Part shown: positions 11,857 through 62,369 of the stretch, piece after piece | Position numbering within the stretch: position 1 is the first letter of the stretch | Layout of the letters: each line of letters begins with the position of its first letter | DNA from: Syntrophaceae bacterium UBA2280 | Lineage (GTDB): Bacteria; Desulfobacterota; Syntrophia; Syntrophales; Smithellaceae | Length of the DNA: 64,000 nt | Direction of reading: 5' to 3' | Assembly: GCA_002347685.1 (NCBI GenBank) | Contig: DDWS01000026.1 | Coordinates: 26,995-90,994 of the forward strand | The notes under the pieces: generated by a model | Databases searched by the model: none | Told to the model about the DNA's origin: nothing | Seen by the model: only the letters and a program-made list of their open reading frames with translations | Translations under genes and position numbers: made by a program

Positions 11857-11941
11857 CCTTACACTCCGGCATGACCTGGATAGAATAAACCCGTATGGAT
11901 ACGCTAACTGGGTACCTATTATCCACCCTATGGGGATAAAA

Positions 11942-11958
11942 GGCAAATTCTATTTGCC
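11942..11958. promoter_or_regulatory. perfect palindrome GGCAAAT-N3-ATTTGCC, candidate activator site upstream of the sigma-54 promoter
   Basis: Read directly from the sequence. It lies about 45 bp upstream of the -24 element in the divergent HK/zraP-like intergenic region. Confidence 0.35.
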
Positions 11959-12001: not shown

Positions 12002-12017
12002 TGGCACAGGCTTTGCT
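12002..12017 (+). promoter_or_regulatory. sigma-54 (-24/-12) promoter
   Basis: TGGCAC-AGGCT-TTGCT matches the TGGCAC-N5-TTGCW consensus exactly. It is about 50 nt upstream of the Spy/CpxP-family gene and divergent from the NtrC-type two-component operon. Confidence 0.8.
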
Positions 12018-29029: not shown

Positions 29030-30436
29030 CTAGAAGGTCAGGGTCAGCTTGTTGATGATCAGGTAGTTGTTCTCAAGATCCTTGGTCTCACCAATACCAG
29101 CCGCGACACCCTTGTAGTAATTACCGGTGAACAGGTAACCGGCGCCCAGCATGTAGGACAGGTTGTTGGTGATTTTGTAGGTCGCGGTCACATCCACTTC
29201 CCAGCCGTAGTCACGATCCACATGAGCAACGGTAAGGGTCTTGTCCGCATGGGCATAAGCTACCGCCAGCCCGATATCGAGTTTCTCGATCGGACGGACA
29301 CCGGCGCGAACCTTCGCGAAGTAGGCGTTGCTCAGCACGCCGACTGCCGTCGTGCCGTCGTAGGCCGCCTGTGCGCCTGCCCAGTAGTTCAGGTCGTTGT
29401 TGAACAGGATCAAAGTGGGATTCCAGTCAAGACCGCCACTCAGCAATCCGCCTTCCATTTTGTCAGCCGTTCCGGGATCGTTTCCGGATACATAGGCCAG
29501 GGTACCACCGACATAGAACATGCCTAAATCGGCAACCGCGTCAACATACGCGCTCAAATTGTTGATGTCGATATCATCGCCAAGCCCCGCTGCCTGAGGA
29601 ATCGGGGGAAGTAAATAATAGGGCGCATCGTCCCATTTGATCTTGCCGTATGCCCAGTACACCTGAGCCTCGAGGGCCACGGGGCCAACCTTGGCTTTCA
29701 CGTACGGGGTCAAAACGCCGACGTTCATCACGTAACCGCCGTCATCGAACAGAGGACCAAACCCACTACCCTGCATTGCACCTCTGTTGCCCGCTTCGCG
29801 GATGTACTTGCCCAGCAAGCCGACCTGTCCGGTCTTCCAGGCAAACACAGCAAAAGCGGTGTAGAAGCTGGAATCCCTGTCGGAAGCCAGTGTGTCGTTG
29901 ATTCTTGTGTAGCTTCTTTCATTGTTCTTTCCGGTCTGGAGTCCGACAATGACCGGGCCCTGTTTGATGGTGTACGTCACTTTACCGGTCGGCAGCGAGC
30001 TGTCGCCGAATTTGGTTCCCCAGGCGCCGTCGATCATGTAACCGGCGGAGAACATGCCGATGGGGGATACGTAGGTCAGATAAGCCAGATCGATCGCGAT
30101 GTTTTCGTTTTCAGCGCGGGTACCGGCGGACAGGATGTCATTTGTCGTTTCCAGGGGCACATCGGATCTTGCGGCGCCCCAGGCTCTTTCCATAATGTCC
30201 ATGCGGGTGGTCAGCATGAGCCCCGGAGAAACGGTGAACACGGTGTTCAGGCGCAGTCTCTGGAAATAGAACGCTGTGCTGGGATTACCTTCATCTTTGA
30301 CTAACCCGGTTTTGTCCATGTACAGACCACCGGCAACAAATTCGCCGCTGAATTTCACGTCGACCTGCGCAAAGGACGTCGTGCTGAAGGCTACAATCAG
30401 CCCCAGTGACAACAAAACTAACCAAAATCTCTTCAT
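29030..30436 (-). CDS. putative outer-membrane beta-barrel porin
   Basis: Signal peptide MKRFWLVLLSLGLIVAFSTTSFAQ, alternating amphipathic Gly/Tyr-rich strands, and a C-terminal LTLTF ending in Phe. Confidence 0.7.
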   Translation of the reverse strand: MKRFWLVLLSLGLIVAFSTTSFAQVDVKFSGEFVAGGLYMDKTGLVKDEGNPSTAFYFQRLRLNTVFTVSPGLMLTTRMDIMERAWGAARSDVPLETTNDILSAGTRAENENIAIDLAYLTYVSPIGMFSAGYMIDGAWGTKFGDSSLPTGKVTYTIKQGPVIVGLQTGKNNERSYTRINDTLASDRDSSFYTAFAVFAWKTGQVGLLGKYIREAGNRGAMQGSGFGPLFDDGGYVMNVGVLTPYVKAKVGPVALEAQVYWAYGKIKWDDAPYYLLPPIPQAAGLGDDIDINNLSAYVDAVADLGMFYVGGTLAYVSGNDPGTADKMEGGLLSGGLDWNPTLILFNNDLNYWAGAQAAYDGTTAVGVLSNAYFAKVRAGVRPIEKLDIGLAVAYAHADKTLTVAHVDRDYGWEVDVTATYKITNNLSYMLGAGYLFTGNYYKGVAAGIGETKDLENNYLIINKLTLTF

Positions 30437-30653
30437 TTCTTCCTCCTAAAATATAGATGGGAGTTAAAAATTTTCCGCCTTTTTTCCCGAAACGGGCATT
30501 CCGATGAGAAAAGGCGCCTCTTGTTTCGCACACCCCTGACGATCAAAGACCCGTCACAGGATATACGGCGCGAAAGCTAACAGAGACCTGCCGGACTTGT
30601 CAAGATATTTTTTCCCGTCAGCCACCACCGCTTTCGCTTGCCCGCCATTTACA

Positions 30654-30668
30654 GCAATATAAGTGCCA
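30654..30668 (-). promoter_or_regulatory. sigma-54 (-24/-12) promoter upstream of the porin gene
   Basis: The minus strand reads TGGCAC-TTATA-TTGC, an exact consensus match. It implies a 5-prime UTR of roughly 200 nt before the porin ATG. Confidence 0.75.
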
Positions 30669-30759: not shown

Positions 30760-30774
30760 ACGATATATAATCGT
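30760..30774. promoter_or_regulatory. candidate enhancer (UAS) palindrome ACGAT-ATATA-ATCGT
   Basis: Centred about 100 bp upstream of the -24 element. It uses the same half-sites as the palindromes at 56791 and 60371. Confidence 0.5.
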
Positions 30775-30990
30775 AATTATTTATATTTTACAAAAATCGC
30801 CGTGCATCATCCACCTGAATGATCCGGCAACTGGAATGACAATCCGACATGAAACGGCAACACCTGCCATCCTTAAAATTGGATCTCCACTGAAAAATCA
30901 GTCGCTTCATGTATGGATTTTTTCACACACCAGCCACTGAAAGCTCTCAACATCGCCTGAAAAAGTGGGGGAAAAGACACAGGGGAATTG

Positions 30991-31298
30991 GTGGATGGTG
31001 AATAGTGAATAAAAGAGGTCAGAAGTCAACGATCAGAGATCAGAGGGTTCAGTAAGACCTCCGACTTCTGATCACTTCGCCCATCGCCCAGTGTCAATAT
31101 TGCTGTGTCATTTCGAAGGAGTCGAGACGACTGAGAAATCCAGGATTTCTCCCTACGGTCGAAATGACAAACGGGGGTGGGTCGAAATGACACGACTTGC
31201 TTAAAGCAAATGTTGCCAGTTTACGGTTGCCCTTTCCTTGATCCTTGATCCTTGATCCTTGAACCTCCGACCTCCGACCTCCGACCTCCGACCTCTGA
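30991..31298. repeat. composite intergenic repeat: multiple heptamer arrays flanking a nested palindrome
   Basis: Left arrays: GTGAATA x2, ATCAGAG x2, CGCCCAK x2 and others. Core: GTGTCATTTCGA...TCGAAATGACAC (31105-31193) with a central GAGAAATCC-AGG-ATTTCTC hairpin. Right arrays: CCTTGAT x4 and CCTCCGA x4-5 (31236-31298). Confidence 0.85.
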
Positions 31299-47328: not shown

Positions 47329-48966
47329 CTAGCACGGATCGACAAACGTATGACCTGCCTCATCGGGTTTTCTTGCCGGTACCGATTTGAGACCCTGCAG
47401 AATCCATTTCCGGGTATCGGCCGGATCGATGACCGCGTCGATTTCAAGATAAGCGCCCATGTTGATGGCTTTACCCCGTTGATACATGTCGGCGACCAGT
47501 TTTTCGTAGAGCGCTTCTCTTTCCTGCGGATCCGCAATGGCCTCGAGTTCCTTTTTGAAACCGGCCTTGACCGCCCCTTCGAGGCCCATCGCCCCGAATT
47601 CTCCAGTCGGCCATGCGGCGGTGAAGAATGATTCGTGGAATCCTCCTCTGGCCATCGCCATGGCGCCCAGCCCGTACCCCCTGCGCAGAAAGACTGTGAA
47701 ATAGGGAACCGTGATGTGCGAGCCGACAACGAACATGCGGCAGACATGGCGAACCTGCGCCCTTTTTTCGATTTCCGGTCCGACCATAAATCCCGGGGTA
47801 TCGCACAAAGAAAGAATCGGCAGGCCGTGCGCGTTGCAGATCTGCATTAAACGCGCCACCTTGTCCGCGCCCTCCGCCTCAATCGCCCCCGCCATGTGCA
47901 TCGGGTTGTTGGCGATGAAACCGAGCGGACGGCCCTCGATCCGCATAAATCCGGTGACCATTCCCGGCCCGAATTTGGGTTTGAGCTCCAGAAATGATCC
48001 CGTATCAGCCAGCGTTTTGATCACATTTCTGACATTGTAAGCGCGTTTCCGGTTTTCGGGAATCAGGTTGCGCAAGCGAAGCTGATCGGCGGCTTCCCAT
48101 CCGGGAGTGGTTCCCTGGAAATAGGAAAGGTACTGCCTGGCGACAGCGACCGCTTCCTGATCATCGGCCACTTCGATATCCACGACGCCGCTTTGCGTTT
48201 GAACGTCGATCGGTCCGACCTCTTCGGGTTTGAAAACGCCGAGTCCGCCGCCTTCGATCATTACGGGTCCGCCCATGCCGATATTGGAATCGCTTGTCGC
48301 AATGATGACATCGCAGCAGCCCAGCAGGGCGGCATTCCCCGCAAAACAGGGACCTGTCACGATGCCGATCATGGGAACCGCGCCGCTTAGCCTGGCAAAT
48401 GAACCGAAAGTGGACAGGTCCAGGCCTGCGATCATGACCCCCATGGCATCCACATCTCCGGGCCTGCCGCCTCCGCCTTCCGCGAAGAAAACCAGCGGCA
48501 GTCTCTGCTCGTGCGCCAGCTTCAGCATGCGATCGATTTTTTTATGATTGAAAAATCCCTGGGTGCCGGCCAAAACGGTATAGTCATAAGCCATGAACAT
48601 ACAGCGGGCTTTATCGTCAGCAAACCAGGAACGGTTGACCGAGCCGATCCCTGTGATCAGACCGTCCGTCGGAGTCTTCAAGATGAGATCCTCTTCGGAA
48701 CGCCGCCCGCGCTGCGCGGCAATCGCCAGAGCGCCATATTCAATGAAACTCCCTTCATCGCACAGCTCGGTGATGTACGCGCGAGCCGTACGCTGGTTTT
48801 TCTGCTGCCTTCGCGCCACCGCGTCGGGACGGTTCTCGTCAAGGCAAAATGCATGTCGGCGTATCACCTCGGCCAGGTCGGGTCGAATCGGATCGGCAGT
48901 GGCCGCTTTGTCATCGGAAGGCGATATTTTTTCGTTGTCGGATGTCATCGTTTCTTTATGTTTCAT
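47329..48966 (-). CDS. acyl-CoA carboxyltransferase (PccB / MmdA / GcdA family)
   Basis: Two carboxyl-transferase domains (GGGRPGD, MGGPVMIEGGG, GFIANNPMHMAGA). Start trimmed to MKHKETM (GGAG RBS). Substrate cannot be resolved from the sequence. Confidence 0.8.
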   Translation of the reverse strand: MKHKETMTSDNEKISPSDDKAATADPIRPDLAEVIRRHAFCLDENRPDAVARRQQKNQRTARAYITELCDEGSFIEYGALAIAAQRGRRSEEDLILKTPTDGLITGIGSVNRSWFADDKARCMFMAYDYTVLAGTQGFFNHKKIDRMLKLAHEQRLPLVFFAEGGGGRPGDVDAMGVMIAGLDLSTFGSFARLSGAVPMIGIVTGPCFAGNAALLGCCDVIIATSDSNIGMGGPVMIEGGGLGVFKPEEVGPIDVQTQSGVVDIEVADDQEAVAVARQYLSYFQGTTPGWEAADQLRLRNLIPENRKRAYNVRNVIKTLADTGSFLELKPKFGPGMVTGFMRIEGRPLGFIANNPMHMAGAIEAEGADKVARLMQICNAHGLPILSLCDTPGFMVGPEIEKRAQVRHVCRMFVVGSHITVPYFTVFLRRGYGLGAMAMARGGFHESFFTAAWPTGEFGAMGLEGAVKAGFKKELEAIADPQEREALYEKLVADMYQRGKAINMGAYLEIDAVIDPADTRKWILQGLKSVPARKPDEAGHTFVDPC

Positions 48967-49186
48967 AGTAAAAAAACTCCAGGGTATTTCCTTGTTATTC
49001 TGATTGAGAAAAGATGCTCCATGCCAATGCAGTGCAAAATTTCTACTATATTTACATCGATTATTCAATGGATACGACCGGCCCGCCGGAAAGCAGCCAT
49101 TGCATGATCGGATGCGGTTTCAATAATCAGATCGGGATTTGCTTTCCCGGCCGCTTGCAGCGCCCCGGCACACCCCGATCCATCCC

Positions 49187-50521
49187 TTACCGGATACCAA
49201 ATTTTTCGAAGATAAAATCCGTGTCCTCCCCGATGCGGGCGGAGACTTTTTTGACTCGAAGCGGCGTTTTCGACATCTTCCCGGTTACAGGAAGCTTGAG
49301 TCCTCCGCAGGACGGATCATCCACCTTAAAGAAGGTGTTTCGCACCTTCCAGTGTTCCACCTCCATGACTTCCATGGGACGCAGCATGCGGGTAGTCACC
49401 GGAAGACCGCCGCCGCGCCACTTTGAACGAGCGGCCTTGAGGCAGAAAGCCTGAAATTTCGTAAATATTTCATTAAAGGTCATGTTGGCCACGGCCTTTT
49501 CAATTTCACGGTTGAGCGTCTTGGCCCTTTCGATATCGTCGGTAATCCGGTCCAGAAGCGTTTTCCAGTCCTCCTCGATATGCCACAGCCCCAGAATCCG
49601 AAGAGCCGCCCTGAAATCCTGGTCCCGGAAACAGGCAATGGCCACGTAACCGTCTTTGCATTTGAAGAATCCGTACGGGCAAAGCCCGTAATCGAGCGTC
49701 CCGTAACGGGGACGCGGTTTTTTCCAGATATATCCGACGGTTGGCGGAAACCCCACGCAAGATGAATAGGAATCGGCTGTGGCCACATCGATCATTTGCC
49801 CCTGACCGGTTCGCCCTTTAAAGAAAAGGGCCATCAGGCTGCTGCACACAGCCGACACGGCGCTCGTGTATCCGGCCGTGTAGAAGCCTGCCCTGGTCGG
49901 CCAGTTGTAGGGTTCCGGATCATCGGGCAGGCCGCCGATAAGGCCTGCCATTCCTGATTCGGCCTGACTGGTGAGATCCGACCACGGCTGGGACGCCATT
50001 TCTTTTGCCTGACGAGTGTACTGGCCGTAGGGCGTGATTGCCAGATATATCAGAGACGGATTGATTTCCTTGAGCTGCCGGTAGCCGATTCCCAGACGGT
50101 CCATCAGACCGGGCTCAAAGGTTTCAATGAGCATATCCGCCTTTTTCACAAGCGCAATAAACTTTTTTTTGTCCTCTTCGTTTTGAATGTCCAGGATGAC
50201 GTTGTGCTTGTTTCTGCTCTCCATGAGATAGGGAATCCCGGTGCCTTCGACGGTTTTTCCGTAAGGTGTCATCAGGCGCGACGGATCGCCATCCGGAGGT
50301 TCTATCCTGATCACAAAAGCCCCCGCCTCGGCAAGAAGGCTCGAAGCGATAGTACCGGTAAAATTGGCATAGCTCAAGTCAAGGACAACCGTGTCGCTGA
50401 GCGCCTCCGGTTTTCCCTGCGGCGACATGATTTCGGAGATGACTTTGCTCCATTCCGAAATCCGCTTCGCGGCTTGCTTGTTTTGCATATGCCGTGAATA
50501 TACTTTTTCCTTACTCGACAT
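49187..50521 (-). CDS. family III CoA-transferase (CaiB/BaiF/Frc family), paralog 2
   Basis: VVLDLS...LLAEAGAFVIRIEPP N-terminal signature and DLTSQAESGMAG catalytic Asp region. Start trimmed to MSSKEK, overlapping the upstream stop by 11 nt. Confidence 0.8.
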   Translation of the reverse strand: MSSKEKVYSRHMQNKQAAKRISEWSKVISEIMSPQGKPEALSDTVVLDLSYANFTGTIASSLLAEAGAFVIRIEPPDGDPSRLMTPYGKTVEGTGIPYLMESRNKHNVILDIQNEEDKKKFIALVKKADMLIETFEPGLMDRLGIGYRQLKEINPSLIYLAITPYGQYTRQAKEMASQPWSDLTSQAESGMAGLIGGLPDDPEPYNWPTRAGFYTAGYTSAVSAVCSSLMALFFKGRTGQGQMIDVATADSYSSCVGFPPTVGYIWKKPRPRYGTLDYGLCPYGFFKCKDGYVAIACFRDQDFRAALRILGLWHIEEDWKTLLDRITDDIERAKTLNREIEKAVANMTFNEIFTKFQAFCLKAARSKWRGGGLPVTTRMLRPMEVMEVEHWKVRNTFFKVDDPSCGGLKLPVTGKMSKTPLRVKKVSARIGEDTDFIFEKFGIR

Positions 50522-51872
50522 CGCTTTCACCACCATAGTTGAATAATTTGTCTTCCTCAATATTGTAATACACCGGGGGCCGCTGTCCCACGCGGTAATC
50601 CCACCCCCCGACAACCTGCTCTTTTTCGAGTTTCAGAATATCTTCTTCCGATAGCCCCAAACGGGTTTTCAGGATGTAGCGATTATGATATCCGATCGGC
50701 CGTGTCAGCCATTTGACCCTTCCCGGTGTTTCACTCATCATCGCCGCGGAACCGGCCATGACCAGTTTTTGATACATCGGATCGTCAAATTCCACGACGG
50801 AACCGCGTTCTTTCCGCCACGGATCTGTGCTGATCTGGACATCATCCTGGACTTCACCCAGAGGAAAACGGCAGGACTTTCTAAGCTCGCGAAGTTCATC
50901 GGCTGAAGTTGAAGCCATCCAATCGGACACAATCCGGTTTAATTCTGAGGCGTTTTCGGGTTTACACCGGTCCAGGGATCCGGCGAAACGACTGTCCTTC
51001 ATCAGATCCTCTCTGTTGAGGACCCTGCCTAAAGCGGCGAACTGCTCATCCGTGCCGATGGAAAGGGCGAAAAAGGCACCATCCGATGTCTTGAAAATGC
51101 CCGATGGAGATGCGGTGGGATCCTGATTGCCCGTGCGGCCGATTTCTTCGCCGGTGACACTGCTGTAAGTGAAATGAAACAGGGAACGCATCAGAATTTC
51201 CGCCTGGCAGATATCCAGATACTGCCCTTCGCCCGTTTTCTCCCGATAGTTGAGCGCCATCATGATCAGCATGGCGGCGAAAAATCCCGGATAGAAATCC
51301 CCGTAGAAATCCGGGACCTTGAAATAATGTTCCGTATCGGGATATCCGGTGCTGCTGATGACGCCACTGGCTCCCTGGGCCAGCAAATCCCATCCGGGGA
51401 AAAAGCGAAAGGGTCCGGACTGTCCGAACGTGCTCAGGCTCGCATAAATAATTTTCGGATTGACGGCCCGTGTCTGGGTATAGCCGATTCCCCAGGCTTC
51501 GACAGTTCCGCTGGCGAAGTTTTCAATCACGATGTCGGACTGTTCGGCAAGCTTCAGGATAAGGTCCTTTCCCCGGGGATACTTCACGTCGATTCCGACA
51601 AAATACTTGCTGTGATTGATGAAGTGCCACATGGGGTTTGAGTGCTTCCAGTATTTCCCCCAGTAGGTGGCGCTGCGCCAGTAGTCCCCCTGGTAGGGCA
51701 CTTCGACCTTGATCACTTCAGCGCCATGTTCGGCCAGGACGTTGGCTGCCTTGGGACCGAAAATCATGTGCGACAAATCGAGCACCCGGATGCCTTTTAA
51801 CGCTTCCGACTTTTTTTCCACCTTGGTGCGGTCGAAGGCGTCGGCCATGTATGAAAAATAATCATTGTTCAT
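50511..51872 (-). CDS. family III CoA-transferase (CaiB/BaiF/Frc family), paralog 1
   Basis: LKGIRVLDLSHMIFGPKAANVLAEHGAEVIKVE signature and WDLLAQGASG catalytic Asp region. Confidence 0.85.
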   Translation of the reverse strand: MNNDYFSYMADAFDRTKVEKKSEALKGIRVLDLSHMIFGPKAANVLAEHGAEVIKVEVPYQGDYWRSATYWGKYWKHSNPMWHFINHSKYFVGIDVKYPRGKDLILKLAEQSDIVIENFASGTVEAWGIGYTQTRAVNPKIIYASLSTFGQSGPFRFFPGWDLLAQGASGVISSTGYPDTEHYFKVPDFYGDFYPGFFAAMLIMMALNYREKTGEGQYLDICQAEILMRSLFHFTYSSVTGEEIGRTGNQDPTASPSGIFKTSDGAFFALSIGTDEQFAALGRVLNREDLMKDSRFAGSLDRCKPENASELNRIVSDWMASTSADELRELRKSCRFPLGEVQDDVQISTDPWRKERGSVVEFDDPMYQKLVMAGSAAMMSETPGRVKWLTRPIGYHNRYILKTRLGLSEEDILKLEKEQVVGGWDYRVGQRPPVYYNIEEDKLFNYGGESDVE

Positions 51873-51876
51873 AGAA

Positions 51877-52581
51877 CTAGACTCCCATGTAAGCTTTCTT
51901 GATCAATTCGCTTTTAAGCAGATCCTTGCTCTTCCCATCCAGAACGATTTCTCCATCCTGCATGACGTATCCCCTGTTGCTGATTTCAAGGGCGATCTGA
52001 GCATTCTGCTCGGCGAGAAATACGGTGATGCCCTGTTTCGGCAGGATTTCGATTGCACTGTATATCTGCTGTTGAAACGCAGGGCTCAATCCAAGTGACG
52101 GTTCGTCGATCATCAGGAGCTTCGGCCGCGCCATCAATCCCCGGGCGATCACCAGCATCTGCTGCTCGCCGCCGCTCATCAGGCTGGCCCGCTGGGCACT
52201 CCGTTCCGCGAGCCTGGGAAACATTTTCGACACCTGCTCGTACATCTCGTGGCGCCCGCTCCAGGCTTTCCGGGTACTTGCCCCCATGAAAAGATTTTCT
52301 TTCACCGACAGATAAGGAAAGATTTTCCTTCCTTCGGGTATCTGAGAAATGCCCATACGCACGACGTCCTGGGGCGGCAGCTTCTCGATCGATTTTCCGA
52401 GAAACTCGATGGTGCCCGCTGTTCCATGGAGGATGGCTGAAATCGTATTGAGCAGTGTGGTCTTGCCTGCTCCGTTTGAACCCAGAAGCGAAACCAGTTC
52501 TCCTTCTTTTATGGTCAGGTTCACGCGGTGCAAAACCGGAATGACGCCGTAAGAGACGTCCAGATTTTTAATGGTAAGCAT
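51877..52581 (-). CDS. branched-chain amino acid-type ABC transporter ATP-binding protein (LivF-like)
   Basis: Walker A GSNGAGKTT, signature MSGGEQQML. Confidence 0.9.
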   Translation of the reverse strand: MLTIKNLDVSYGVIPVLHRVNLTIKEGELVSLLGSNGAGKTTLLNTISAILHGTAGTIEFLGKSIEKLPPQDVVRMGISQIPEGRKIFPYLSVKENLFMGASTRKAWSGRHEMYEQVSKMFPRLAERSAQRASLMSGGEQQMLVIARGLMARPKLLMIDEPSLGLSPAFQQQIYSAIEILPKQGITVFLAEQNAQIALEISNRGYVMQDGEIVLDGKSKDLLKSELIKKAYMGV

Positions 52582-52582
52582 G

Positions 52583-53308
52583 TCAGTGTTTACCCCCTAA
52601 ATAAGCCTCAATAATATGCGGATCTTTAACAATCTGCTCGGGCGGACCCTCGGCGATCTTTTTCCCGTACTGTAAGACGACAATGCGCTGGGCGGCCTTC
52701 ATGATGATTTTCATGACATGTTCGATCCACAGGATGGTAATGCCGAATTGTTCCTGTGCGCTCCAGATCATCTCGAGGGCCCGTTCCGATTCCACGGGAT
52801 TGAGACCCGCCATGGCTTCATCGAGCAGGAGCAGTTTTGGCGTCGTCGCCAGCGCCCGGGCCAGTTCGAGCATTCTGAGCTCATAGAGATTGAGATTGCT
52901 GGCCAGTTCATCGCGTTTGGAAAAAAGACCGACAAATTCCAGATAGTAAGACGCTTCGAGTCCCGCGTCGCCTAAACTCATGTTGGTCCGCTTCTTGCCG
53001 TTTAAAACACTCGTCACGACAGACGCCAGCGCCGTCATGGCATAAAAGGGCTGCGGAATCTGATAGGTTCTCGATACGCCCAGTTTGCAAATCTTGTCCG
53101 ATGTCATCCCGGTGATTTGAGTTCCCTCAAAATGGATCGATCCGTCAGAGGGCTGATAAAGTCCGCAGATGATATTCATCATCGTTGTTTTTCCCGCGCC
53201 GTTGGGACCGATCAGCCCGACAACTTCATTTTTGCCCACGGAAAAGCTGACATCATCGAGCGCCCGAAGGCCGCCGAAACTAATACCTACATTCTTGATT
53301 TCTATCAC
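52583..53308 (-). CDS. branched-chain amino acid-type ABC transporter ATP-binding protein (LivG-like)
   Basis: Walker A GPNGAGKTT and LivG-type C-terminus. Confidence 0.9.
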   Translation of the reverse strand: MIEIKNVGISFGGLRALDDVSFSVGKNEVVGLIGPNGAGKTTMMNIICGLYQPSDGSIHFEGTQITGMTSDKICKLGVSRTYQIPQPFYAMTALASVVTSVLNGKKRTNMSLGDAGLEASYYLEFVGLFSKRDELASNLNLYELRMLELARALATTPKLLLLDEAMAGLNPVESERALEMIWSAQEQFGITILWIEHVMKIIMKAAQRIVVLQYGKKIAEGPPEQIVKDPHIIEAYLGGKH

Positions 53309-53387
53309 GTCTTGAGCATCTCCTTTACATATGAGAACGAACCTTTGCCCGTCTGTACACGGCGGTGACGAATGGCCTCATCTCTTC

Positions 53388-54431
53388 TTATTCACGGCGT
53401 ACATGCATCTTGGGATAGTAATCCCGGGGATGTCTTTTCTTGTAGAGCCCCCAGAGCCCCTCCCCGCGGGGCAAAAGATAAATCATCGCAACCAGGACCA
53501 GCGGAAACACCCAGTGGCTGATGTGGCCAAAGCTCCGCAGGGCTTCTTCGATGATGGACACCGCATAGGCGCCGGGAACCGCACCGAAGACGGAGGCGCG
53601 TCCTCCGATGATCACGATGAAGAGCACCTTCAGCATGAACTCGAGCGGCAGGTACGTCACACCGGCGAAGGATCGGAAGGTATGGACAATAAACCATCCT
53701 ACAATGCCGGTGAGAATGGAGGGAACCACATAGTAGATCACCTTATAAAAGCTGACATTGATGCCCATCATCCGCGCCACATTTTCATTTTCATTGATCG
53801 CCGCCAGTGAAACGCCGAACCGGGATTTGGTGATCTTATGGGCCCCCAACAGGTACAGGAGCATTAAAAACAGCGACAGATAATAATAGGACAGGTAATT
53901 CCACTTGACCCGGCCCAGATCGAAAAGGGGACTCATCCCGAAAAGACCCACCTCGCCTCTGAAGATATCACCGAACTGGTAGGTCAAATCAAGAAAGGCC
54001 AGGGGCAAAATCAGGGTGATGAGTGAAAAATAAAGCCCGCGGGCGATCCAGGTGATCGGACTGAGCATCAGGGCAACCGACCCGCAGACAAAAATGGTCC
54101 CCAGAAGCGTGAAGAAAGGGTTCCAGCCGAAAGAAAGGTTCAAAAGCGCCGCCGTGTACCCCCCGATTCCCAGGTAAAACTGGGGTCCGAAATTCACCCG
54201 GGCCGTTCCAAGAATCTGCAGGCTCAAGGGGATGGCGAGGGCGGCCAGGAGATTGGCCGTGGTGAGCATCGTCAGCAGATGCGGGTATGAAAAAAAGAAC
54301 AACGGCAATATCAGCAGAAACGCCACACCGAAAGTCGGATTCCGCCAGTAGCGGGGCTCTATGCACCACTCATATTTCTGCGTTCCCCATCTGAGCAAAA
54401 CGCGATCCCGTTTCAGATCAACACTTACCAT
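53388..54431 (-). CDS. ABC transporter permease (LivM-like)
   Basis: Polytopic membrane protein of the LivM family. Overlaps the livH-like stop. Confidence 0.85.
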   Translation of the reverse strand: MVSVDLKRDRVLLRWGTQKYEWCIEPRYWRNPTFGVAFLLILPLFFFSYPHLLTMLTTANLLAALAIPLSLQILGTARVNFGPQFYLGIGGYTAALLNLSFGWNPFFTLLGTIFVCGSVALMLSPITWIARGLYFSLITLILPLAFLDLTYQFGDIFRGEVGLFGMSPLFDLGRVKWNYLSYYYLSLFLMLLYLLGAHKITKSRFGVSLAAINENENVARMMGINVSFYKVIYYVVPSILTGIVGWFIVHTFRSFAGVTYLPLEFMLKVLFIVIIGGRASVFGAVPGAYAVSIIEEALRSFGHISHWVFPLVLVAMIYLLPRGEGLWGLYKKRHPRDYYPKMHVRRE

Positions 54432-55315
54432 ATCGTTTCTCCCTCCACTATTCCGCCCCGTTTAACAATGAGGAATACAAGTGTTACAAAGAGCGCCGCG
54501 AAACTCATGAATCGTGGAGCCAGTAAAAAGCTTGTCGAAAAATGCACAAAGGCAATCAGGTACGAGGCAATGATGTTGCCTTTGAGATTGCCCAGCCCTC
54601 CCAGAATGGCGATCAACAGCGCCGTAATCAGAAGCGGTTGACCCATGTGCGGATCAATACTCCAGAAGGGCGCGATCATGATCACGCACAGGGAAGGCGG
54701 GATCACAGCCAGAATCATGGCGAGGTAATACATGTTGTTCACGGAGGCCCCCATAAGCCTGGCGGCGTTTAAATCCTGACTCATCGCCCTGATAATCAGG
54801 CCGATTCTGGTTTTCATGAACATGAAAATAAAGAGCGCCGTCACGACAATGCCGACGATCGCCGCGGCGATCATCTGATAGGACACATTGACGACACCGA
54901 TGGTCGCAACCCCCTGAAACAACGTCGTCGGAAGGTTGACTCCCGCCGTCACGGGATACAACCAGTTCACGAAATGACTGGCGGCAAGAAACAGAAGAAT
55001 GGAAACCACCAGAAGGTTCTCCTCTTCATCCAGATATCTTTGAAAGACCCCCTTGTAAAAGACGACGACAGCGATGAATATCTGTAAAAGCAGCATGAGG
55101 ATGATGCTTGGAATCAGCCCCAGGTTCATATCGGACAGGAAGAACCACAAACCATAGGCGGCCAATACAAAAGTGATGCCGTATCCGAGGTGAAAAATGC
55201 GCAATACGCCGCAAATCAATGAAAAACCTATGGAAATCAGAAGATAGATCGATCCCCATATAACCGTGTAGATCAGAATGTTCTCAATTACAGCAACCAT
55301 GTCATAATCTCTCAT
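54425..55315 (-). CDS. ABC transporter permease (LivH-like)
   Basis: Polytopic membrane protein of the LivH family. Confidence 0.85.
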   Translation of the reverse strand: MRDYDMVAVIENILIYTVIWGSIYLLISIGFSLICGVLRIFHLGYGITFVLAAYGLWFFLSDMNLGLIPSIILMLLLQIFIAVVVFYKGVFQRYLDEEENLLVVSILLFLAASHFVNWLYPVTAGVNLPTTLFQGVATIGVVNVSYQMIAAAIVGIVVTALFIFMFMKTRIGLIIRAMSQDLNAARLMGASVNNMYYLAMILAVIPPSLCVIMIAPFWSIDPHMGQPLLITALLIAILGGLGNLKGNIIASYLIAFVHFSTSFLLAPRFMSFAALFVTLVFLIVKRGGIVEGETIW

Positions 55316-55393
55316 TGGGGGGGCGCCCGTTGAGGGCGCCCCCTGTTGTTTATTTCCGCTGCTACTTCGTACCGGGGCAAACGGATCGGGAGC

Positions 55394-56656
55394 TTACTTT
55401 CTCAATTTCGCCGGTGACATGAATTTTCCGGTGGCGATGTTTTTGGGATAAATCGGCACCATTTTCCCGTCCTGCCATTGAACGATGGGCGTCACGTATG
55501 CCGGATAGGGGAGATTATGATGGTTCTTGGCATCCCATCCGATGGTTCCGAGAACCGCCGTTTCTTTCACATTTTCAAGCTCATGGATGACTTTTTCAAT
55601 GTCCTTGGTGTCGCCTGCCTGCTGAAGGGCTTTCCTGTAGCCGAAAAGCGTGTCATATGTGGTGTGTGATCCGAAAATAGGCCCCACCTTGTATTTCTCA
55701 ATCATGTTGTCCATGAAGGGAATTGTTTTTTCAGTGATGGGAACCTTGACAAAGGACGAACCGATGCTTCCGCCGGCGATCATGCCGTCGGTCATTTTCC
55801 AGGCCATCGGCATGCCGGCAATTCCGCCCCAGAAGAACCATGGGATGTCGCGGGCGCTGGATTGAGCCCACTGCTTGATAAAGGAAGCCTGATCGATATA
55901 TCCCATGACGCCGTCGATGGCATCGGCGCCTGATTTCGTGATATCATCAAACAGGGTGCTGAACACTTTCTGATCCAGTGATATCGTCGCTTCATAGACG
56001 ACGTCAAAACCCTTGCTCTTATAAATATCCTTGAGGCTGGGTGAAACTCCCGGGATACCCCGACGGATGGGCTGGGTCCATGCCATGTCTTCATACAGCA
56101 AGGCGATTTTCTTTGAGCCGATGTAATTTTTATGGAAATCGGGCAGAATTTGTCCACCAAGAATCTGGAGGTAATGGGTGGCTACGAAATAATAGGTATG
56201 GAAGGCGAATTTGTACCGGTCATAGTTATCCCGCACAAGATGCCAGATATCGTCGGTTCCGCCAATGGTGCAAAACATGATGTGCGGGAATTCACGGAAA
56301 AGCTCAGCGCCGATCTGGGCTCCCGCCACGCCCATTTCAACCTTCTCAGCCACAACCACGGCATCCACCCGGTTGTGCATAACCAGTTTCTTATACACCT
56401 CGATGCCTTTGGGGATTTCTCCCTTGGTGTCTTCCGAAATCAACTCCACCGGACGCCCCAGAATGCCTCCGGACGCGTTCATCTCTTCAACCGCCAGCTT
56501 TGCCGCCGCCTGAGCGCTCAGCGAGAAAGGTGCTGAGAGATTACCCATAAAGCCGATCTTGATTGGTTTACCCTTCTGTGCCATCGCCGGTGAAATCCCC
56601 AGCGTCAGGCCAAGAACAACTGCGAGAACGATGAAAAAAATGCGTGCTTTGTTCAT
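55394..56656 (-). CDS. ABC transporter substrate-binding protein (type 1 PBP, LivK-like)
   Basis: Signal peptide ending AMAQ and IKIGFMGNLSAPF. Ligand not inferable. Confidence 0.85.
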   Translation of the reverse strand: MNKARIFFIVLAVVLGLTLGISPAMAQKGKPIKIGFMGNLSAPFSLSAQAAAKLAVEEMNASGGILGRPVELISEDTKGEIPKGIEVYKKLVMHNRVDAVVVAEKVEMGVAGAQIGAELFREFPHIMFCTIGGTDDIWHLVRDNYDRYKFAFHTYYFVATHYLQILGGQILPDFHKNYIGSKKIALLYEDMAWTQPIRRGIPGVSPSLKDIYKSKGFDVVYEATISLDQKVFSTLFDDITKSGADAIDGVMGYIDQASFIKQWAQSSARDIPWFFWGGIAGMPMAWKMTDGMIAGGSIGSSFVKVPITEKTIPFMDNMIEKYKVGPIFGSHTTYDTLFGYRKALQQAGDTKDIEKVIHELENVKETAVLGTIGWDAKNHHNLPYPAYVTPIVQWQDGKMVPIYPKNIATGKFMSPAKLRK

Positions 56657-56697
56657 GTGATCCTCCTTTTTAAATGACGATAAACTTCAAATTCTTA

Positions 56698-56712
56698 GCA
56701 ACCATTGTGCCA
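56698..56712 (-). promoter_or_regulatory. sigma-54 (-24/-12) promoter of the liv-like / CoA-transferase operon
   Basis: The minus strand reads TGGCAC-AATGG-TTGC, an exact consensus match, about 40 nt upstream of the SBP ATG. Confidence 0.8.
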
Positions 56713-56788
56713 TGAGAAAACAAGCAAGCAACTACTTGTTATTCAAAGTATTTCTCATTAAAAAAGCACAACGCTTTCAAAAAAACAC

Positions 56789-56802
56789 AACGATATATCG
56801 TT
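56789..56802. promoter_or_regulatory. candidate enhancer (UAS) palindrome AACGATATATCGTT
   Basis: Perfect 14-bp palindrome centred about 85 bp upstream of the -24 element. The 14-mer ACGATATATCGTTA is repeated at 60371. Confidence 0.55.
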
Positions 56803-56854
56803 AACAAACTAAATATGATATTATTTTTGTAGAAATGGCGAAGGCAGGGCCGAA

Positions 56855-59800
56855 TCAGTCGGCATCAGTATCTCCGGTCAGATAGCTCGCTTTTCGCGAT
56901 ATACCCAGCTTCTTCATTCGCGAAAAGAGTGTATTGGGATGAATGTCGAGAATTTCTGCTGCGCCACCCTGACCCGTTACCTTGCCGCCCGTTGCCCTGA
57001 GAACTTCCAGAATATGGTTTAGCTCGTTTTCCCTGAGGCTCATATGGGCATCATGAGATAAAGAATGCCTGCTGGCCAGTTCCGGCACCCGATAAAAGGG
57101 GCCGTTGCTCAATATCACCCCTCTCTCGATGACATTTTCAAGCTCCCTGACGTTTCCCGGCCAGTCATAGGACATGAGTTTTTCCATTTCCGGCGGTGAA
57201 ATTTTGTCCAGGGGCTTATTGCACTTATTCGCGTAGAGCCCCAGAAAATACCGGGCGAGAAGCGGCACGTCTTCTTTTCTGTCCCGGAGACTGGGAACAT
57301 GAATGGGAAACACATTGAGGCGATAATAGAGATCCCTGCGGAAACGGCCCTTTTTTACTTCCTGTTCCAGATTCCGGTTCGTGGCGGCCAGAAGACGAAA
57401 ATCCGACTGAATGATGACGTCGCCGCCGACCCGCACGAATTCCCGGCTTTGCAAAACCCGCAGGAGCTTGACCTGGATATCCATGGAAATATCCCCGATT
57501 TCGTCGAGGAAGATAGTTCCCCCGTTGGCAAGCTCGAATCGCCCGATGTGGCGCGCCGTCGCTCCGGTAAAAGCCCCCTTTTCATGGCCAAAAAGTTCAC
57601 TGGAAATCAGACTCTCAGAAAGAGCGCTACAGTCGACCCGGATAAAAGGCTTCTCCGCCCGGTGGCTGTGATGATGGATCGATCGGGCTACCAGCTCCTT
57701 GCCGACGCCTGTCTCGCCCAGAATCAAAACCGTCGCATCCGTCTGGGCAACCTGTTCTGCCTGGCTGAACACTTTCTTGATGGCCGGACTTTGACCCACG
57801 AAATCCTCGAAATGAATGGTTTCGAGGTATTCTTTCTCATAATGCTCTTTTTCAAGTTGCTGTTTTTCATACAGGTTTTGCAGGGCTTCCCAAGCTTCCG
57901 CGTTATCCATGGCAATAGCGGCCTGGGTGGCAAAGTAGTTGAGAATTTCCAGATCCGACTCCTTAAAAGCGCTGCGAAACAGCCGGTTGTCGTGATACAA
58001 AACGCCGGTTACTTTATTGCGCATTTTAAGAGGAACGCAGATACAAGACCGAATGGCGCCTCCGCCGGTGGCTTGATCGGAATTCCGGTGGTCGAGTTCC
58101 ATGATGTGTCCCTTGCCTGTCCTGGCCGTTTTTTCGATCAGCCTCATGGACCTGTCAAAATGGGGCACGGTGACATCTTCAGACGTGAGATTTTTCGCAG
58201 CCTTTAGAATGACTGTCTCGGCTCTTTCCCCTTCCAGAACGAAAATGGCACCCCGCTCGGCGCCGGTTATCCTGTTGATGGCGGAAATGATGCGCCTGGA
58301 AAGCTCCCTGTAATCCCGTATTGTGGTCAGCTCCTGGCTTAACCGCAATATTTCATCGAGCAGGTTTCTCCCGTAGCGCAGATCCTTCACAAGCGGCCTG
58401 ATGTCGCCGGGAACCAGAACCTCGTTGAAAGCATAGAGCGTCCGTGCCGCCGGTTCGGCGTACTCGATGTATTCTTTCTCGCTGCCCATCCGCAGATATT
58501 CCCTGGCCACCTCCAGCTTCGACTTGGCCAGTTCAATCTGATGCCCGCAGGTTTCCAGGTCTGCCATGGATTGCTTGAGGGTTTGCAGAATGTCCCTGCT
58601 TGAATGGCCCGAATTCCGCATCATCAGCGCCTTATGCCGGAAGGCAACGCCCTTCATGAAAAGATTACCGCTCTCGAGGGAATAGCGTATTTCATCGTCC
58701 AGGGACAAACCCTCCATCCGCGGGAACGATCCGTCTTCCATGTCCTTGCAGATCATCATCCACAAAGCGGTAAACTTCACGGTCATTTGGGACTGCACAC
58801 TGAGATCACAATATTCCTTCAGGTTTGATATCGCCTTGGCAGGGTCACCCGCCTGGTGATGCGCGTAGCTCAGCAAAGCCAGCGCTCCCAGCCGGGCATA
58901 AATGCTTTTGCTTTTCTTGATTTCATCCCAGGATTCTTCAATGCACGAAATGGCATCCTCGGGGCGGTGCAGCTCCAGCAGCAAATGTCCGAGGGATACT
59001 CCTGCCAAGCCGGCCATGGACAAGTTGCCAATGCTGCGGCTGCGGACTCGAATGGCATCGAGCATACCCAGGCCCTGCGAATACAAACCGGTATGGCCAA
59101 GACAGACGCCCGCCGTCAGAGCGGCCAACAGGGGCAGCCGGTTCTTTGGAAACTGGTCTTCCACTTCGGGTACGAGAGTTTCGTAAATTCGGACAACCTC
59201 TTTATAGCGGCCAGACCAGTAATGAAAAAAAATACCGAAAATCGTCGCTGATTTCTGGATGGCCGGGTCATCGATTGTTCGGGCCAACTCCCATCCCTGC
59301 CTGAAGTGGCTTAACGCAGAACTGTACCGGGAGGAAAGCCACTGGCTTTTTCCCAGATGCATTTCAAGAAAACCGATCGAACCCGAATCGCCGCAGGATT
59401 CGGCGCGGCGGATCGCTTCCCGGAGGATCGCGATGACGCGGTTCGGATTATCACTGTCCGTGGAAACCTTCGCATACTCAAGGGTCGCTTCAATGAAGAG
59501 ACGGTCTGCTTCAGGCGTCGCAAGTTGCCTGAGGTCATCGATGGCCTTGTCGTAATAAAGCCTCGCTTCCTCATCCCTGAACTGCCTGCGGTGAATGTTG
59601 CCGTTTTCAATCAGAAGGCGGCATCCGGCATCATCATTGGAAATATGCAGCAGATGCCGGGCAACCTGTCTTGTTTTTTTTGAGTCTTCGGAGAGATCTC
59701 CGAGAAGCAGCCTGGATATATTCCGATGAAGGGATTCTCTGTCGGCGGGCGGGATGGCCGACACCAGCTTGTTTTGTTCTGCAGCATCAATGAAGGAAAA

Positions 59801-60019
59801 ATCCGTCAGGTTATTCCGGGAAAGCCAGCCTTTTTCAACACCGGATTCCAATGCGGCAAAAATGACCGACGCCTTCTTCCCCGTCAGTTCCTGCAACCAA
59901 TCGATGTTGAATTCACCCTCAAACAGAGCGGCCCGGGACAAAACAAACAGGCGCCCTTGAAAATCCTCTTCAGAGAGATGACCGTTTATAATCATTGATT
60001 CCCTCATTGCCTGCAGCAC
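56855..60019 (-). CDS. sigma-54-dependent transcriptional activator with a large N-terminal helical-repeat region and a GAF domain (no receiver domain)
   Basis: 1054 aa. Roughly the first 550 aa are unassigned and helical. A GAF-like region follows ([22 protein letters not shown]...). AAA+ Walker [15 protein letters not shown] loop, C-terminal Fis-type HTH ([21 protein letters not shown]). Confidence 0.85.
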
Positions 60020-60370
60020 TCAAACGACTGCATTCAACCAAAAATACCTGCGGTTCTTTCGTAAACCCCCGCTTGGCAAATTCCTAAACGGCTGTACAGA
60101 AAAGGGGCCGTCTGATCGGGTTGATCTTTGCTTTCTTCCCCTGCATCACGATTTCTCGTCTGCAGCACACGATTTGACACTATGGCACAGGCTCCAATTC
60201 CTTACATCAACCGGATAGCAGATTCTTCGCCACCCGGTTTGAAGCACATTATCATATCATCGGCGCAATTCCAAGACTTCCCTGGAAGCCGTTTTTACCC
60301 ATCCTCCCTATGACGCTTATTTCTGAATGAACCCAACCCGGGTAATAAAATACGACATGGGGGTTATTTT

Positions 60371-60419
60371 ACGATATATCGTTACCTCTTTTCAGAAAGC
60401 ACGATGCCCTGGATCGTGC
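60371..60419. promoter_or_regulatory. two candidate enhancer palindromes: ACGATATATCGT and GCACGAT-N7-ATCGTGC
   Basis: Positions 60371-60382 and 60399-60419, which is 45-95 bp upstream of the -24 element of the decarboxylase-beta promoter. Confidence 0.55.
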
Positions 60420-60463: not shown

Positions 60464-60479
60464 TGGCATAGTGATTGCA
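60464..60479 (+). promoter_or_regulatory. sigma-54 (-24/-12) promoter of the decarboxylase beta-subunit operon
   Basis: TGGCAT-AGTGA-TTGCA. The track ORF start at 60475 lies inside this promoter and is therefore rejected. Confidence 0.75.
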
Positions 60480-60564
60480 CAGTACACTACTTTATCATAA
60501 ATATTTCATACATATAACCGCAATTAATGTATTTTGCGATGCTATGTATAAGGAGACTCAATCA

Positions 60565-61818
60565 ATGACCATAGATTCACTGGTGAACATTTTTCAGGGG
60601 GTGGCGACGCTTGCGGAATCCTTTTCACACAACCCCACTGTCGCCTTCGTTCGTATCGGTCTGATCTTCCTGGGATTTCTTTTGATCTACCTGGGTAAAA
60701 AAGGCATTCTGGAGCCGCTTCTGATGGTTCCGATGGGATTGGGCATGGCGACGGTCAATGCGGCCATTATGTTCTTCGATCCCTTGAATCTGCACGGCGG
60801 CATGGGCACGCTCTTTGTGGAAGCGCAGGCCGGCGCCACGGCGGACGCCGTGAAAAATGCCGCGGAAGTCATGATGATGCTGCAGATCAACTGGCTCCAG
60901 CCGATCTATACGTTCACCTTCAGCAACGGTTTGATCGCCTGCCTGATTTTCATGGGCATCGGGTCCCTGCTGGATGTGGGCTACGTCATGGCCAAACCTT
61001 TCCAGAGCATGACCATCGCGCTTTTCGCAGAACTGGGAACGATTGTCGTGTTCCCCGTCGCCCAGCTTTTCGGTTACTCGCCGCAGCAGGCAGCCGCCAT
61101 CGCCGTAGTTGGAGGGGCGGACGGGCCGATGGTCTTGTTCACCTCGCTGAGGCTGGCCCCCGAACTCTTTGTACCGATTGCGATCATCGCCTATCTCTAC
61201 CTGGGGTTCGCCTACGGCGCCTACCCCTATCTCATCCGGGCCATGGTGCCGAAGAAACTCCTCGCGATCAAACCGCCGCCGGCCAGGAAAAAAAGGGAAA
61301 TCACCTCCGGCGAAAAAATGCTCTTCGCGGTCGTTGCCTGTGTTTTCCTGTCGTTTCTGCTGCCTGTTGCCGCCCCGCTGATCTTTTCCTTGTTTTTCGG
61401 TGTGGTCATCCGGGAATCAGGCGTGAAGGAGTTCGTTGATCTTCTTCAGGGTCCGGTCCTGTACCTGTCGACCATGTTTCTGGGGCTGATGCTGGGCGTG
61501 CTTTGCGACGTCAATACCATCATGGATCCGAAAGTGCTGCCGCTTCTGCTTTTGGGAATTCTGGCGCTTCTGATTTCGGGTATCGGCGGTATTTTCGGGG
61601 GGTATTTCATGTATGTGGTAACGCGGGGCAAGTTCAACCCCGCCGTCGGCATTGCGGGCGTGAGCTGCACGCCCACCACCTCCAAAGTCGCGCAGAAGGT
61701 GGTTTCGAAAGCCAACCGAACCGCCATCATTCTGCCGGACGCCCTCGGCGCGAATGTCAGCGGCGTGATCACAACGGCGATCATCGCCGGAATATTCTGC
61801 AGCCTGCTGGCCAGATAA
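60565..61818 (+). CDS. sodium ion-translocating decarboxylase beta subunit (OadB/GcdB/MmdB family)
   Basis: Polytopic membrane protein with an OadB-type N-terminus (YLGKKGILEPLLMVPMGLGMATVN). Start set to MTIDSL after an AAGGAG RBS. Confidence 0.85.
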   Translation: MTIDSLVNIFQGVATLAESFSHNPTVAFVRIGLIFLGFLLIYLGKKGILEPLLMVPMGLGMATVNAAIMFFDPLNLHGGMGTLFVEAQAGATADAVKNAAEVMMMLQINWLQPIYTFTFSNGLIACLIFMGIGSLLDVGYVMAKPFQSMTIALFAELGTIVVFPVAQLFGYSPQQAAAIAVVGGADGPMVLFTSLRLAPELFVPIAIIAYLYLGFAYGAYPYLIRAMVPKKLLAIKPPPARKKREITSGEKMLFAVVACVFLSFLLPVAAPLIFSLFFGVVIRESGVKEFVDLLQGPVLYLSTMFLGLMLGVLCDVNTIMDPKVLPLLLLGILALLISGIGGIFGGYFMYVVTRGKFNPAVGIAGVSCTPTTSKVAQKVVSKANRTAIILPDALGANVSGVITTAIIAGIFCSLLAR

Positions 61819-61833
61819 TAAAGGAGAAGCAAC

Positions 61834-61956
61834 ATGACTGGATGGAATGAGGCTTTACTAACCTACGGGTTAACGATCATCATCTCGTTTTCCGTGGCGG
61901 GCATTATCTCTCTTGTGGTGAAGCTGCTGGAGACGTTCTCAAAAAACAAAAGCTGA
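61834..61956 (+). CDS. putative small single-TM subunit of the decarboxylase (OadG/GcdD-like), 40 aa, absent from the ORF track
   Basis: AAGGAG RBS. MTGWNEALLTYGLTIIISFSVAGIISLVVKLLETFSKNKS has one hydrophobic helix and sits 15 nt after the beta subunit. Confidence 0.5.
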   Translation: MTGWNEALLTYGLTIIISFSVAGIISLVVKLLETFSKNKS

Positions 61957-62369
61957 TCCAAAACGGCGCGCGAGTTGTTTTTTACGGAAGGACGCCGTTT
62001 GCTCATGATGGTATCCGTCCGGCAGACAGGCATTCATAAAAGATTTCAACAGGGTGCTTCGATATGAGTAAGGCATCCTGTTGAAAGCCTCTTCGCCATC
62101 CCATTTTTGTGAACCCGGAAACCGCCTCGCATCATGCGTCCTCAATTCTGAGGCACAATTGTTTTTTGACACATTCCTTAAAAGTATGGTAAGTTTTCTT
62201 CCTAATGCCTGTAAAGGCAAAGTAGTCAAAGGCAAGGAAGGCGCACAACATCAATAAAGTATTCGGCCATACAGCAGGACTCGGCGCCGCTCAGATCAAA
62301 TCCATCGAACGCCTTTATCGGCGGGGCACCCCTCCGGAAAACATCATCAGCCATGATCTCGCGCGGGAG

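Follow-up and report, generated by a model that had tools for sequence, protein, structure and literature searches.

The window analysed here, a 64,000-nucleotide stretch of contig DDWS01000026.1 from Syntrophaceae bacterium UBA2280 (Smithellaceae), encodes a sigma-54 enhancer-binding protein (EBP) whose gene lies between two sigma-54-dependent promoters that fire away from it. The same palindrome stands in front of both promoters, at 56790-56801 and at 60371-60382 (in extended form, TAACGATATATCGT). We think it likely that these boxes are upstream activating sequences (UAS) that are bound by dimers of the activator's own C-terminal helix-turn-helix (HTH) domain, HTH_8. We infer this from three kinds of comparison: within the window, among related activator loci, and between the boxes and the recognition helices of the activators beside them.

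Boxes and sigma-54 promoters around the activator gene

The features around the activator gene are as follows:

56855-60019, minus strand: activator gene (sigma-54 EBP, 1,054 amino acids)
56789-56803: box L, AACGATATATCGTT(A), a perfect ACGA-N4-TCGT palindrome
56697-56712, minus strand: -24/-12 promoter of the liv-like operon, TGGCACAATGGTTGCT
60370-60384: box D, TACGATATATCGTTA, a perfect ACGA-N4-TCGT palindrome
60464-60479, plus strand: -24/-12 promoter of the decarboxylase beta gene, TGGCATAGTGATTGCA
60148-60172: box A, a perfect ACGATTTCTCGT (60148-60159) and an ACGA half-site (60169-60172) 21 bp away

The initial annotation of this DNA, made from the sequence alone, had reported an identical palindrome beside both promoters, with the EBP gene between them. 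All of these elements were located. The 12-mer ACGATATATCGT occurs exactly at 56790-56801 and 60371-60382, and the identity of boxes L and D extends to the 14-mer ACGATATATCGTTA (56790-56803 and 60371-60384). The window holds two exact copies of the 12-mer, as compared to 0.00 in 100 dinucleotide shuffles. More generally, ACGA-N4-TCGT has three matches in the window (at 56790, 60148, and 60371), and all of them are beside the activator gene. We ruled out a repeat or mobile element as the origin of the common 14-mer, as the likeness of the two regions ends at 14-15 bp.

As the annotation had also claimed, both boxes are at enhancer distance from their promoters: measured from the 5' end of the -24 element, the centre of box L is 83.5 bp away on the liv-like side, and the centre of box D is 87.5 bp away on the decarboxylase-beta side. 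Because the activator gene is co-directional with the liv-like operon, the liv-side box falls just past the activator's stop codon (by 53 bp).

The third match is in box A, about 130-150 bp upstream of the activator's start codon. This region had been described as CACGATTT direct repeats. Those letters are present, but they are better read as a perfect ACGATTTCTCGT box plus a half-site. Box A is a candidate autoregulatory or distal site. Autoregulation through it is plausible, since it places a perfect box upstream of the activator gene and since boxes abut a TTGAC -35-like hexamer in other members of the family. In four such loci (L022, L031, L056, and L084), the activator gene has a TTGAC -35-like hexamer with a strong and a weak box, 18 or 21 bp apart, beside it. 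A scan of the window for a sigma-70 promoter of the activator gene gave matches at chance level only.

The Pfam domains of the activator are:

residues ~1-540: TPR-rich N-terminal region
residues 570-705: GAF
residues 741-907: Sigma54_activat (PF00158, AAA+), E 7e-72
between the AAA+ domain and HTH_8: AAA_lid_14
residues 995-1038: HTH_8 (PF02954), 22.5 bits with a cut-off of 22

The Walker A motif (GETGVGKE) and the GAFTGA motif are intact, and both are invariant across eight homologs. The protein thus has the features that define a bacterial EBP: an AAA+ domain with GAFTGA, a Fis-type HTH, and -24/-12 promoters as targets. Its HTH_8 domain is strongly conserved in orthologs, and the recognition helix, which contains TLFSRM, is invariant in the close ones. 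The activator belongs to no named NCBIfam equivalog. Its best matches in that database are below their cut-offs (NifA, 386 with a cut-off of 529; FhlA, 373 with 830; NorR, 365 with 476) and span the GAF and AAA+ domains only. Among solved structures, ZraR (1ojl, E 4e-83), NtrC1, and NtrC4 match its AAA+ and HTH_8 modules, and its TPR region of about 540 amino acids has no match at the sequence level. The N-terminal region is also rare, with six matches in the protein database. Our literature search found nothing on a TPR+GAF activator family, on its motif, or on sigma-54 control of such decarboxylases.

A fusion that includes part of the activator turned up in several sequencing runs, in 11 Logan contigs (L001-L005, protein P0001; compare window 49187-60019). 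These contain an 864-amino-acid open reading frame (ORF) that joins activator residues 26-549 (67% identity) to residues 135-474 of the second coenzyme A (CoA) transferase of the liv-like operon (81% identity). The carboxyltransferase gene comes after it. The activator's GAF, AAA+, and HTH domains, the entire ABC transporter, and the first CoA-transferase are missing. The fusion is either an allele with an in-frame deletion or a chimera that arose repeatedly in assembly.

Conservation of the box and covariation with the recognition helix

DNA-level searches identified five orthologous loci in metagenome-assembled genomes of Syntrophales and Desulfobacterales (65-69% identity), and we collected 80 further family loci from metagenomes (38-66% identity). 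In the closer orthologs (54-71% identity), the activator's stop codon is followed by the box and then by a sigma-54 promoter. Boxes in the position of box L are:

L007: box tcACGATATTTCGTga; promoter TGGCACAATACTTGCT, 84.5 bp away
L008: box gACGATATATCGTt, with a one-mismatch box 18 bp upstream
L010/L013: box ACGAAATATCGT, 100.5 bp from promoter CGGCACAATCATTGCT
L011: two one-mismatch boxes, 18 bp apart
L014: box ACGATATTTCGT
L015/L016: two perfect ACGATATATCGT boxes, 18 bp apart

The operons downstream of these activators differ. L008 has the arrangement of the window (an ABC transporter with CoA-transferases), L007 and L015 have an acyl-CoA ligase and a carboxyltransferase, and L010 has a ligase with a fused biotin carboxylase/BCCP/carboxyltransferase. 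In L006, a TAXI-TRAP transporter is combined with a ligase and a carboxyltransferase. So, the box travels with the activator rather than with any one target gene. Farther out in the family (L022/L029, L031, L056, L065, L084/85, L017, and L062), the box is upstream of the activator gene, often with a TTGAC -35-like hexamer directly after it and with a divergent sigma-54 promoter 70-128 bp away, which is the geometry of the decarboxylase side of the window. Overall, the distance from the box centre to the -24 element is 60-102 bp for 22 of the 23 box-promoter pairs; a UAS is usually a palindrome that is inherited together with its EBP and stands some 70-200 bp before the sigma-54 promoter. Phylogenetic footprinting, which the initial annotation had suggested as a check, therefore bears out its proposal: orthologous activator genes keep the box at UAS distance from sigma-54 promoters.

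We also counted inverted repeats without reference to the box. All 4-mer inverted repeats with spacers of 0-12 were counted across 81 non-redundant loci, in 63.6 kb of activator-flanking DNA and, as the control, in the remaining 749 kb of the same loci. ACGA-N4-TCGT had 18 copies in the flanks and 5 in the control (0.42 expected in the flanks, or a 43-fold enrichment), which makes it the top-ranked flanking inverted repeat that is not pure A/T. Other spacings of ACGA and TCGT were not enriched; N7 and N9 each occurred once, and these are the window's own copies. Similarly, the 7-mers most widely common to seven orthologous downstream regions were ACGATAT (6 of 7) and GGCACAA, from the -24 element (5 of 7), while the null maximum averaged 3.4. 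These counts support a predicted operator of fixed spacing, RCGA-N4-TCGY with an A/T-rich centre (RCGA-WWWW-TCGY). The annotation had proposed an operator built on the half-site ACGAT. Its palindromic box holds up, but a free half-site does not, as only the N4 spacing is enriched.

The presence of the box and its outermost base pair both vary with the recognition helix of the adjacent activator:

TLxSRM (all x), 25 loci: 13 with a perfect ACGA-N4-TCGT
TLxFRM, 40 loci: none with any RCGA-N4-TCGY box
TLxSRM with x = F, Y, or A, 18 loci: 13 with ACGA..TCGT; 5 without a perfect box
TLxSRM with x = N or R, 5 loci plus L006: 4 plus L006 with GCGA..TCGC

Fisher exact tests gave P = 3e-7 for TLxSRM versus TLxFRM and P = 4e-4 for the split between F/Y/A and N/R, although these tests ignore shared ancestry and so overstate the significance, as the box-bearing loci are partly close relatives. 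Such covariation would be expected if the activator's own helix reads the box directly, which supports binding by the activator, and binding by some other, unlinked protein would not easily account for it.

The TLxFRM branch may use a different operator, as hinted by one of its members. In L044 (helix TLAFRM; 2610-2640 and 2905-2920), a porin homolog follows a sigma-54 promoter, TGGCACGTCCATTGCT, and about 290 bp upstream there is an inverted repeat without mismatches, TGTGTCG-N4-CGACACA. In five other TLxFRM loci, TGTGCACA recurs in the upstream DNA.

Alternative readings and the extent of the regulon

Besides shared ancestry, several points weigh against the idea that the activator binds these boxes. 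The support for binding is comparative. Each of the window's promoters has a single strong box, and several orthologs carry two, 18-21 bp apart. The half-sites are 8 bp apart from centre to centre, which is close for a classical HTH dimer. L009 and L012, which have the same HTH at 69% identity, have no box or sigma-54 promoter by the activator in the available sequence. Finally, an ortholog of the decarboxylase-side regulatory region was not found in the loci that we compared, so box D depends on its identity to box L and on its position.

The beta-subunit gene itself does have close relatives. Its orthologs in other Smithellaceae (87-93% identity) lie beside MoxR/VWA genes and have TTGAC-type promoters; the box and the sigma-54 promoter are absent in front of them. 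Window 60549-61968, which contains the beta gene and a 40-amino-acid ORF, is 98% identical at the nucleotide level to L101 9985-11404, where the beta gene is the last gene of a TAXI-TRAP and acyl-CoA ligase operon. The homology to L101 begins only about 15 bp before the beta start codon, so the beta gene looks like a recently exchanged cassette under different regulation.

Two further sites in the window resemble the box but have other spacings. They and the porin gene that one of them precedes are:

60399-60419: GCACGAT-N7-ATCGTGC, an inverted repeat with 7-bp arms (ACGA-N9-TCGT)
30760-30774, minus strand: the 30760 site, ACGATATATAATCGT (ACGA-N7-TCGT), a doubtful third target
30653-30668, minus strand: sigma-54 promoter of the porin gene, TGGCACTTATATTGCT
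29030-30436, minus strand: putative porin, 468 amino acids

The repeat at 60399-60419 is 45-65 bp upstream of the decarboxylase-beta -24 element, and its ACGA and TCGT are five base pairs farther apart than in the box. As RNA, it would form a hairpin of the -10 kcal class, and its fold is not above that of shuffles. The annotation had placed it in the operator. It is present where described, but a role as operator finds no comparative backing, as the family shows no enrichment of the N9 spacing. The 30760 site is about 95-97 bp upstream of the porin's -24 element. A near-identical relative (L092/93) keeps this site with one change in the spacer, and it is too similar to be informative. L094 and L095 contain positional orthologs of the porin (60% protein identity, with the same PilZ and beta-CASP neighbours). 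Their porin upstream regions keep the sigma-54 promoter and have no ACGA..TCGT element. Instead, L094, L095, and the window all have GTGTGTnAAAnAnnACAC, an imperfect inverted repeat with CATGAA after it, conserved about 260 bp before the porin -24 element (in the window, at about 30897-30931, within a region of about 30897-31000). This repeat is a better candidate than the 30760 palindrome for the UAS of the porin promoter, and the activator that would act at it is probably not the 1,054-amino-acid protein. Between the PilZ gene and the porin's upstream region there are also two adjoining perfect tandem arrays of heptamers (window 31235-31295; TCCTTGA x4.6 and ACCTCCG x4.7), and related heptamer arrays are in the same place in L092 and L094.

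How much weight should these other spacings be given? If the activator reads ACGAT half-sites flexibly, then the N9 repeat and the 30760 site would both be genuine, and the porin promoter would be a third member of the regulon. Both sites do have perfect ACGA/TCGT arms, with sigma-54 -24 elements 45-100 bp downstream of them, the 30760 site and box L have the 10-mer AACGATATAT in common, and the L044 porin homolog (35% identity) adjoins a family activator. The DNA-binding domains of EBPs are attached by flexible linkers, which would also favour such readout. However, N4 is the only spacing that is enriched across the 81 loci, and 3 or 5 extra base pairs would rotate the half-sites relative to each other by about 100-170 degrees. 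Also, L094 and L095 have their own conserved inverted repeat in place of an ACGA..TCGT element. We therefore consider flexible readout unlikely, though worth keeping in mind. The three-promoter regulon that the annotation had drawn from the 30760 site is not established. Because this site breaks the N4 spacing and is absent from the distant porin orthologs, we read the regulon as two promoters plus one doubtful candidate.

Two other explanations do without binding by the activator. In one, the palindrome is the operator of another factor (a repressor or a global regulator encoded elsewhere) and the activator's neighbourhood is incidental. The comparative nature of the support for activator binding leaves room for this. 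Also, palindromes centred on A/T are typical of many repressor operators, and in several members a TTGAC -35-like hexamer directly adjoins the box, as it might adjoin a repressor's site. But no gene other than the activator's accompanies the box consistently in about 20 diverse loci, the boxes are at UAS distance from sigma-54 promoters, and the box's presence and its outer base pair track the residues of the activator's recognition helix; we consider another factor's operator improbable. In the other, the activator transcript ends at an intrinsic terminator whose hairpin is the liv-side palindrome, and the palindrome's likeness to box D is a coincidence. On the minus strand, box L is shortly past the stop codon and is followed by GTGTTTTTTT, and T-rich DNA also follows the box in L008 and L010/L013. 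Against this, L007 lacks a T-run, a scan found no terminator-like site at box L, the hairpins are weak, with folds no better than those of shuffles (z = +0.46 and +0.70), and the boxes at 60371 and in L022, L031, L056, and L084 are upstream of genes, where no transcript ends. A terminator would also leave the covariation with the HTH unexplained. We rejected this reading as very improbable. (A separate hairpin, AAAGC-N5-GCTTTTTT, is at 56758-56775.) Binding of the boxes by the activator remains our preferred explanation.

Target operons and comparison with known systems

The two promoters precede the following genes (by Pfam and NCBIfam):

47329-56656, minus strand: liv-like target operon
55394-56656, minus strand: binding protein of a Leu/Ile/Val-type ABC transporter
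54425-55315 and 53388-54431, minus strand: ABC transporter permeases
52583-53308 and 51877-52581, minus strand: ABC transporter ATPases
50511-51872 and 49187-50614, minus strand: two family-III CoA-transferases
47329-49068, minus strand: carboxyltransferase/decarboxylase alpha subunit (Carboxyl_trans, 2.6e-77)
60565-61818, plus strand: Na+-translocating carboxybiotin decarboxylase beta subunit (OAD_beta, 2.8e-104)
61834-61956, plus strand: 40-amino-acid hydrophobic ORF, conserved in L097-L101

The carboxyltransferase is distantly mmdA-like (the mmdA alpha model is below its cut-off), and its orthologs (60-66% identity) come after the activator in five further loci (L007, L010, L013, and L015/16). 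The CoA-transferases resemble succinate-glutarate and succinyl-CoA:mesaconate CoA-transferases. The beta subunit passes the generic Na_pump_decarbB model (TIGR01109, 202 with a cut-off of 191), and its best NCBIfam match, a malonate-decarboxylase-type beta subunit, is below its own cut-off. No biotin carrier subunit was located within the window. By homology, the alpha and beta proteins are subunits of one type of biotin-dependent Na+-translocating decarboxylase, split between the two promoters. A coherent reading of the pathway is then dicarboxylate uptake, CoA transfer, and decarboxylation coupled to Na+ export. In L012, an ortholog in which no box was found by the activator, genes for a biotinyl carrier with the motif AMKM, for a small membrane protein, and for an OAD_beta-type subunit (560-2307) are upstream of the activator and co-directional with it. 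So, the association with a decarboxylase extends to a locus in which no box was found.

We propose that the N-terminal TPR/GAF region senses a ligand, for which a dicarboxylic acid or the corresponding CoA ester is the most likely candidate. The AAA+ domain would then assemble at the box, which is some 105-110 bp before the transcription start, and the DNA would loop so that the GAFTGA loop touches the sigma-54 holoenzyme. ATP hydrolysis would open both promoters. This would co-induce uptake by the ABC transporter, activation by the two CoA-transferases, and the Na+-pumping decarboxylase, whose alpha gene is at the end of the liv-like operon and whose beta subunit would be driven by the promoter across the activator gene. 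The box at 60148-60159 probably lets the activator modulate its own expression.

A broader scenario has three parts. The activator gene, a 3' RCGA-N4-TCGY box, and a sigma-54 promoter would be portable as a unit, which has been joined to different operons for dicarboxylate uptake, activation, and decarboxylation in Syntrophales and Desulfobacterales genomes. The beta cassette, which is sigma-70-driven or operon-internal in close relatives, would have been captured in the window's genome, where it gained a new sigma-54 promoter and an identical box. And the x in TLxSRM would read the outermost base pair, with F, Y, or A specifying A:T and N or R specifying G:C. For all three parts to hold together seems to us nearly an even bet, and we put it forward tentatively.

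If the last part is true, then position x of the helix would be a small recognition code for Fis-type HTH_8 domains, and the covariation between helix and base is in any case a rare natural specificity series for such a domain. The analysis also gives a concrete predicted operator, RCGA-WWWW-TCGY, and a minimal regulon for the uncharacterised sigma-54 activators of about 1,050 amino acids with TPR and GAF domains, which are widespread in syntrophic and sulfate-reducing Thermodesulfobacteriota that are hard to study genetically. By linking the two halves of a Na+-pumping decarboxylase with uptake and CoA-transfer enzymes as one putative inducible pathway, it should help to annotate energy-conserving dicarboxylate fermentation in Smithellaceae. 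The mechanism, a textbook EBP-UAS arrangement, would not surprise a specialist.

The window contains a second sigma-54 system (8786-11946), with an NtrC-type activator of 462 amino acids that is 46% identical to the first in the AAA+ region. It is adjoined by a 591-amino-acid ORF that is probably its kinase. A perfect promoter, TGGCACAGGCTTTGCT (12002-12017), faces the other way, before a 166-amino-acid ORF.

Regulons of the EBPs of Desulfovibrio vulgaris were inferred by the same kind of reasoning: EBP genes are co-localised with sigma-54-dependent operons, and conserved palindromic sites, often A/T-rich, lie upstream of the promoters (Kazakov et al., 2015, PMC4641369). That study also describes one-component EBPs with GAF domains or with long N-terminal domains of unknown function, and it proposes autoregulation as well. 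In contrast to our activator, none of the EBPs that it lists is described as having TPR and GAF domains, and TPR is never mentioned. The window's motif and target pathway were not found in the literature that we searched.

Among other known systems, NifA, FhlA, and NorR likewise combine a GAF sensor, an AAA+ domain with GAFTGA, and a C-terminal Fis-type HTH. Activators of these families use palindromic sites about 80-150 bp upstream of -24/-12 promoters, and their targets lie beside the activator gene. The window's activator differs from all three in its TPR-rich region of about 540 amino acids and in its targets, which are genes for dicarboxylate uptake, CoA transfer, and Na+-decarboxylation. 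Also, RCGA-N4-TCGY is unlike both the NifA box (TGT-N10-ACA) and the NorR box (GT-N7-AC). For the AAA+ and HTH_8 modules, the closest solved structures are those of ZraR, NtrC1, and NtrC4. DNA-binding domains of the NtrC/ZraR type recognise inverted repeats as dimers, and the half-sites of the window's box are closer together than those of the NtrC site. As the window's activator has neither a receiver domain nor a partner kinase, it is a one-component sensor, unlike NtrC and ZraR. Thus, the comparisons well support an arrangement that follows the standard logic of bacterial EBPs and their UAS, with two promoters, a predicted operator of fixed spacing, and possibly autoregulation.

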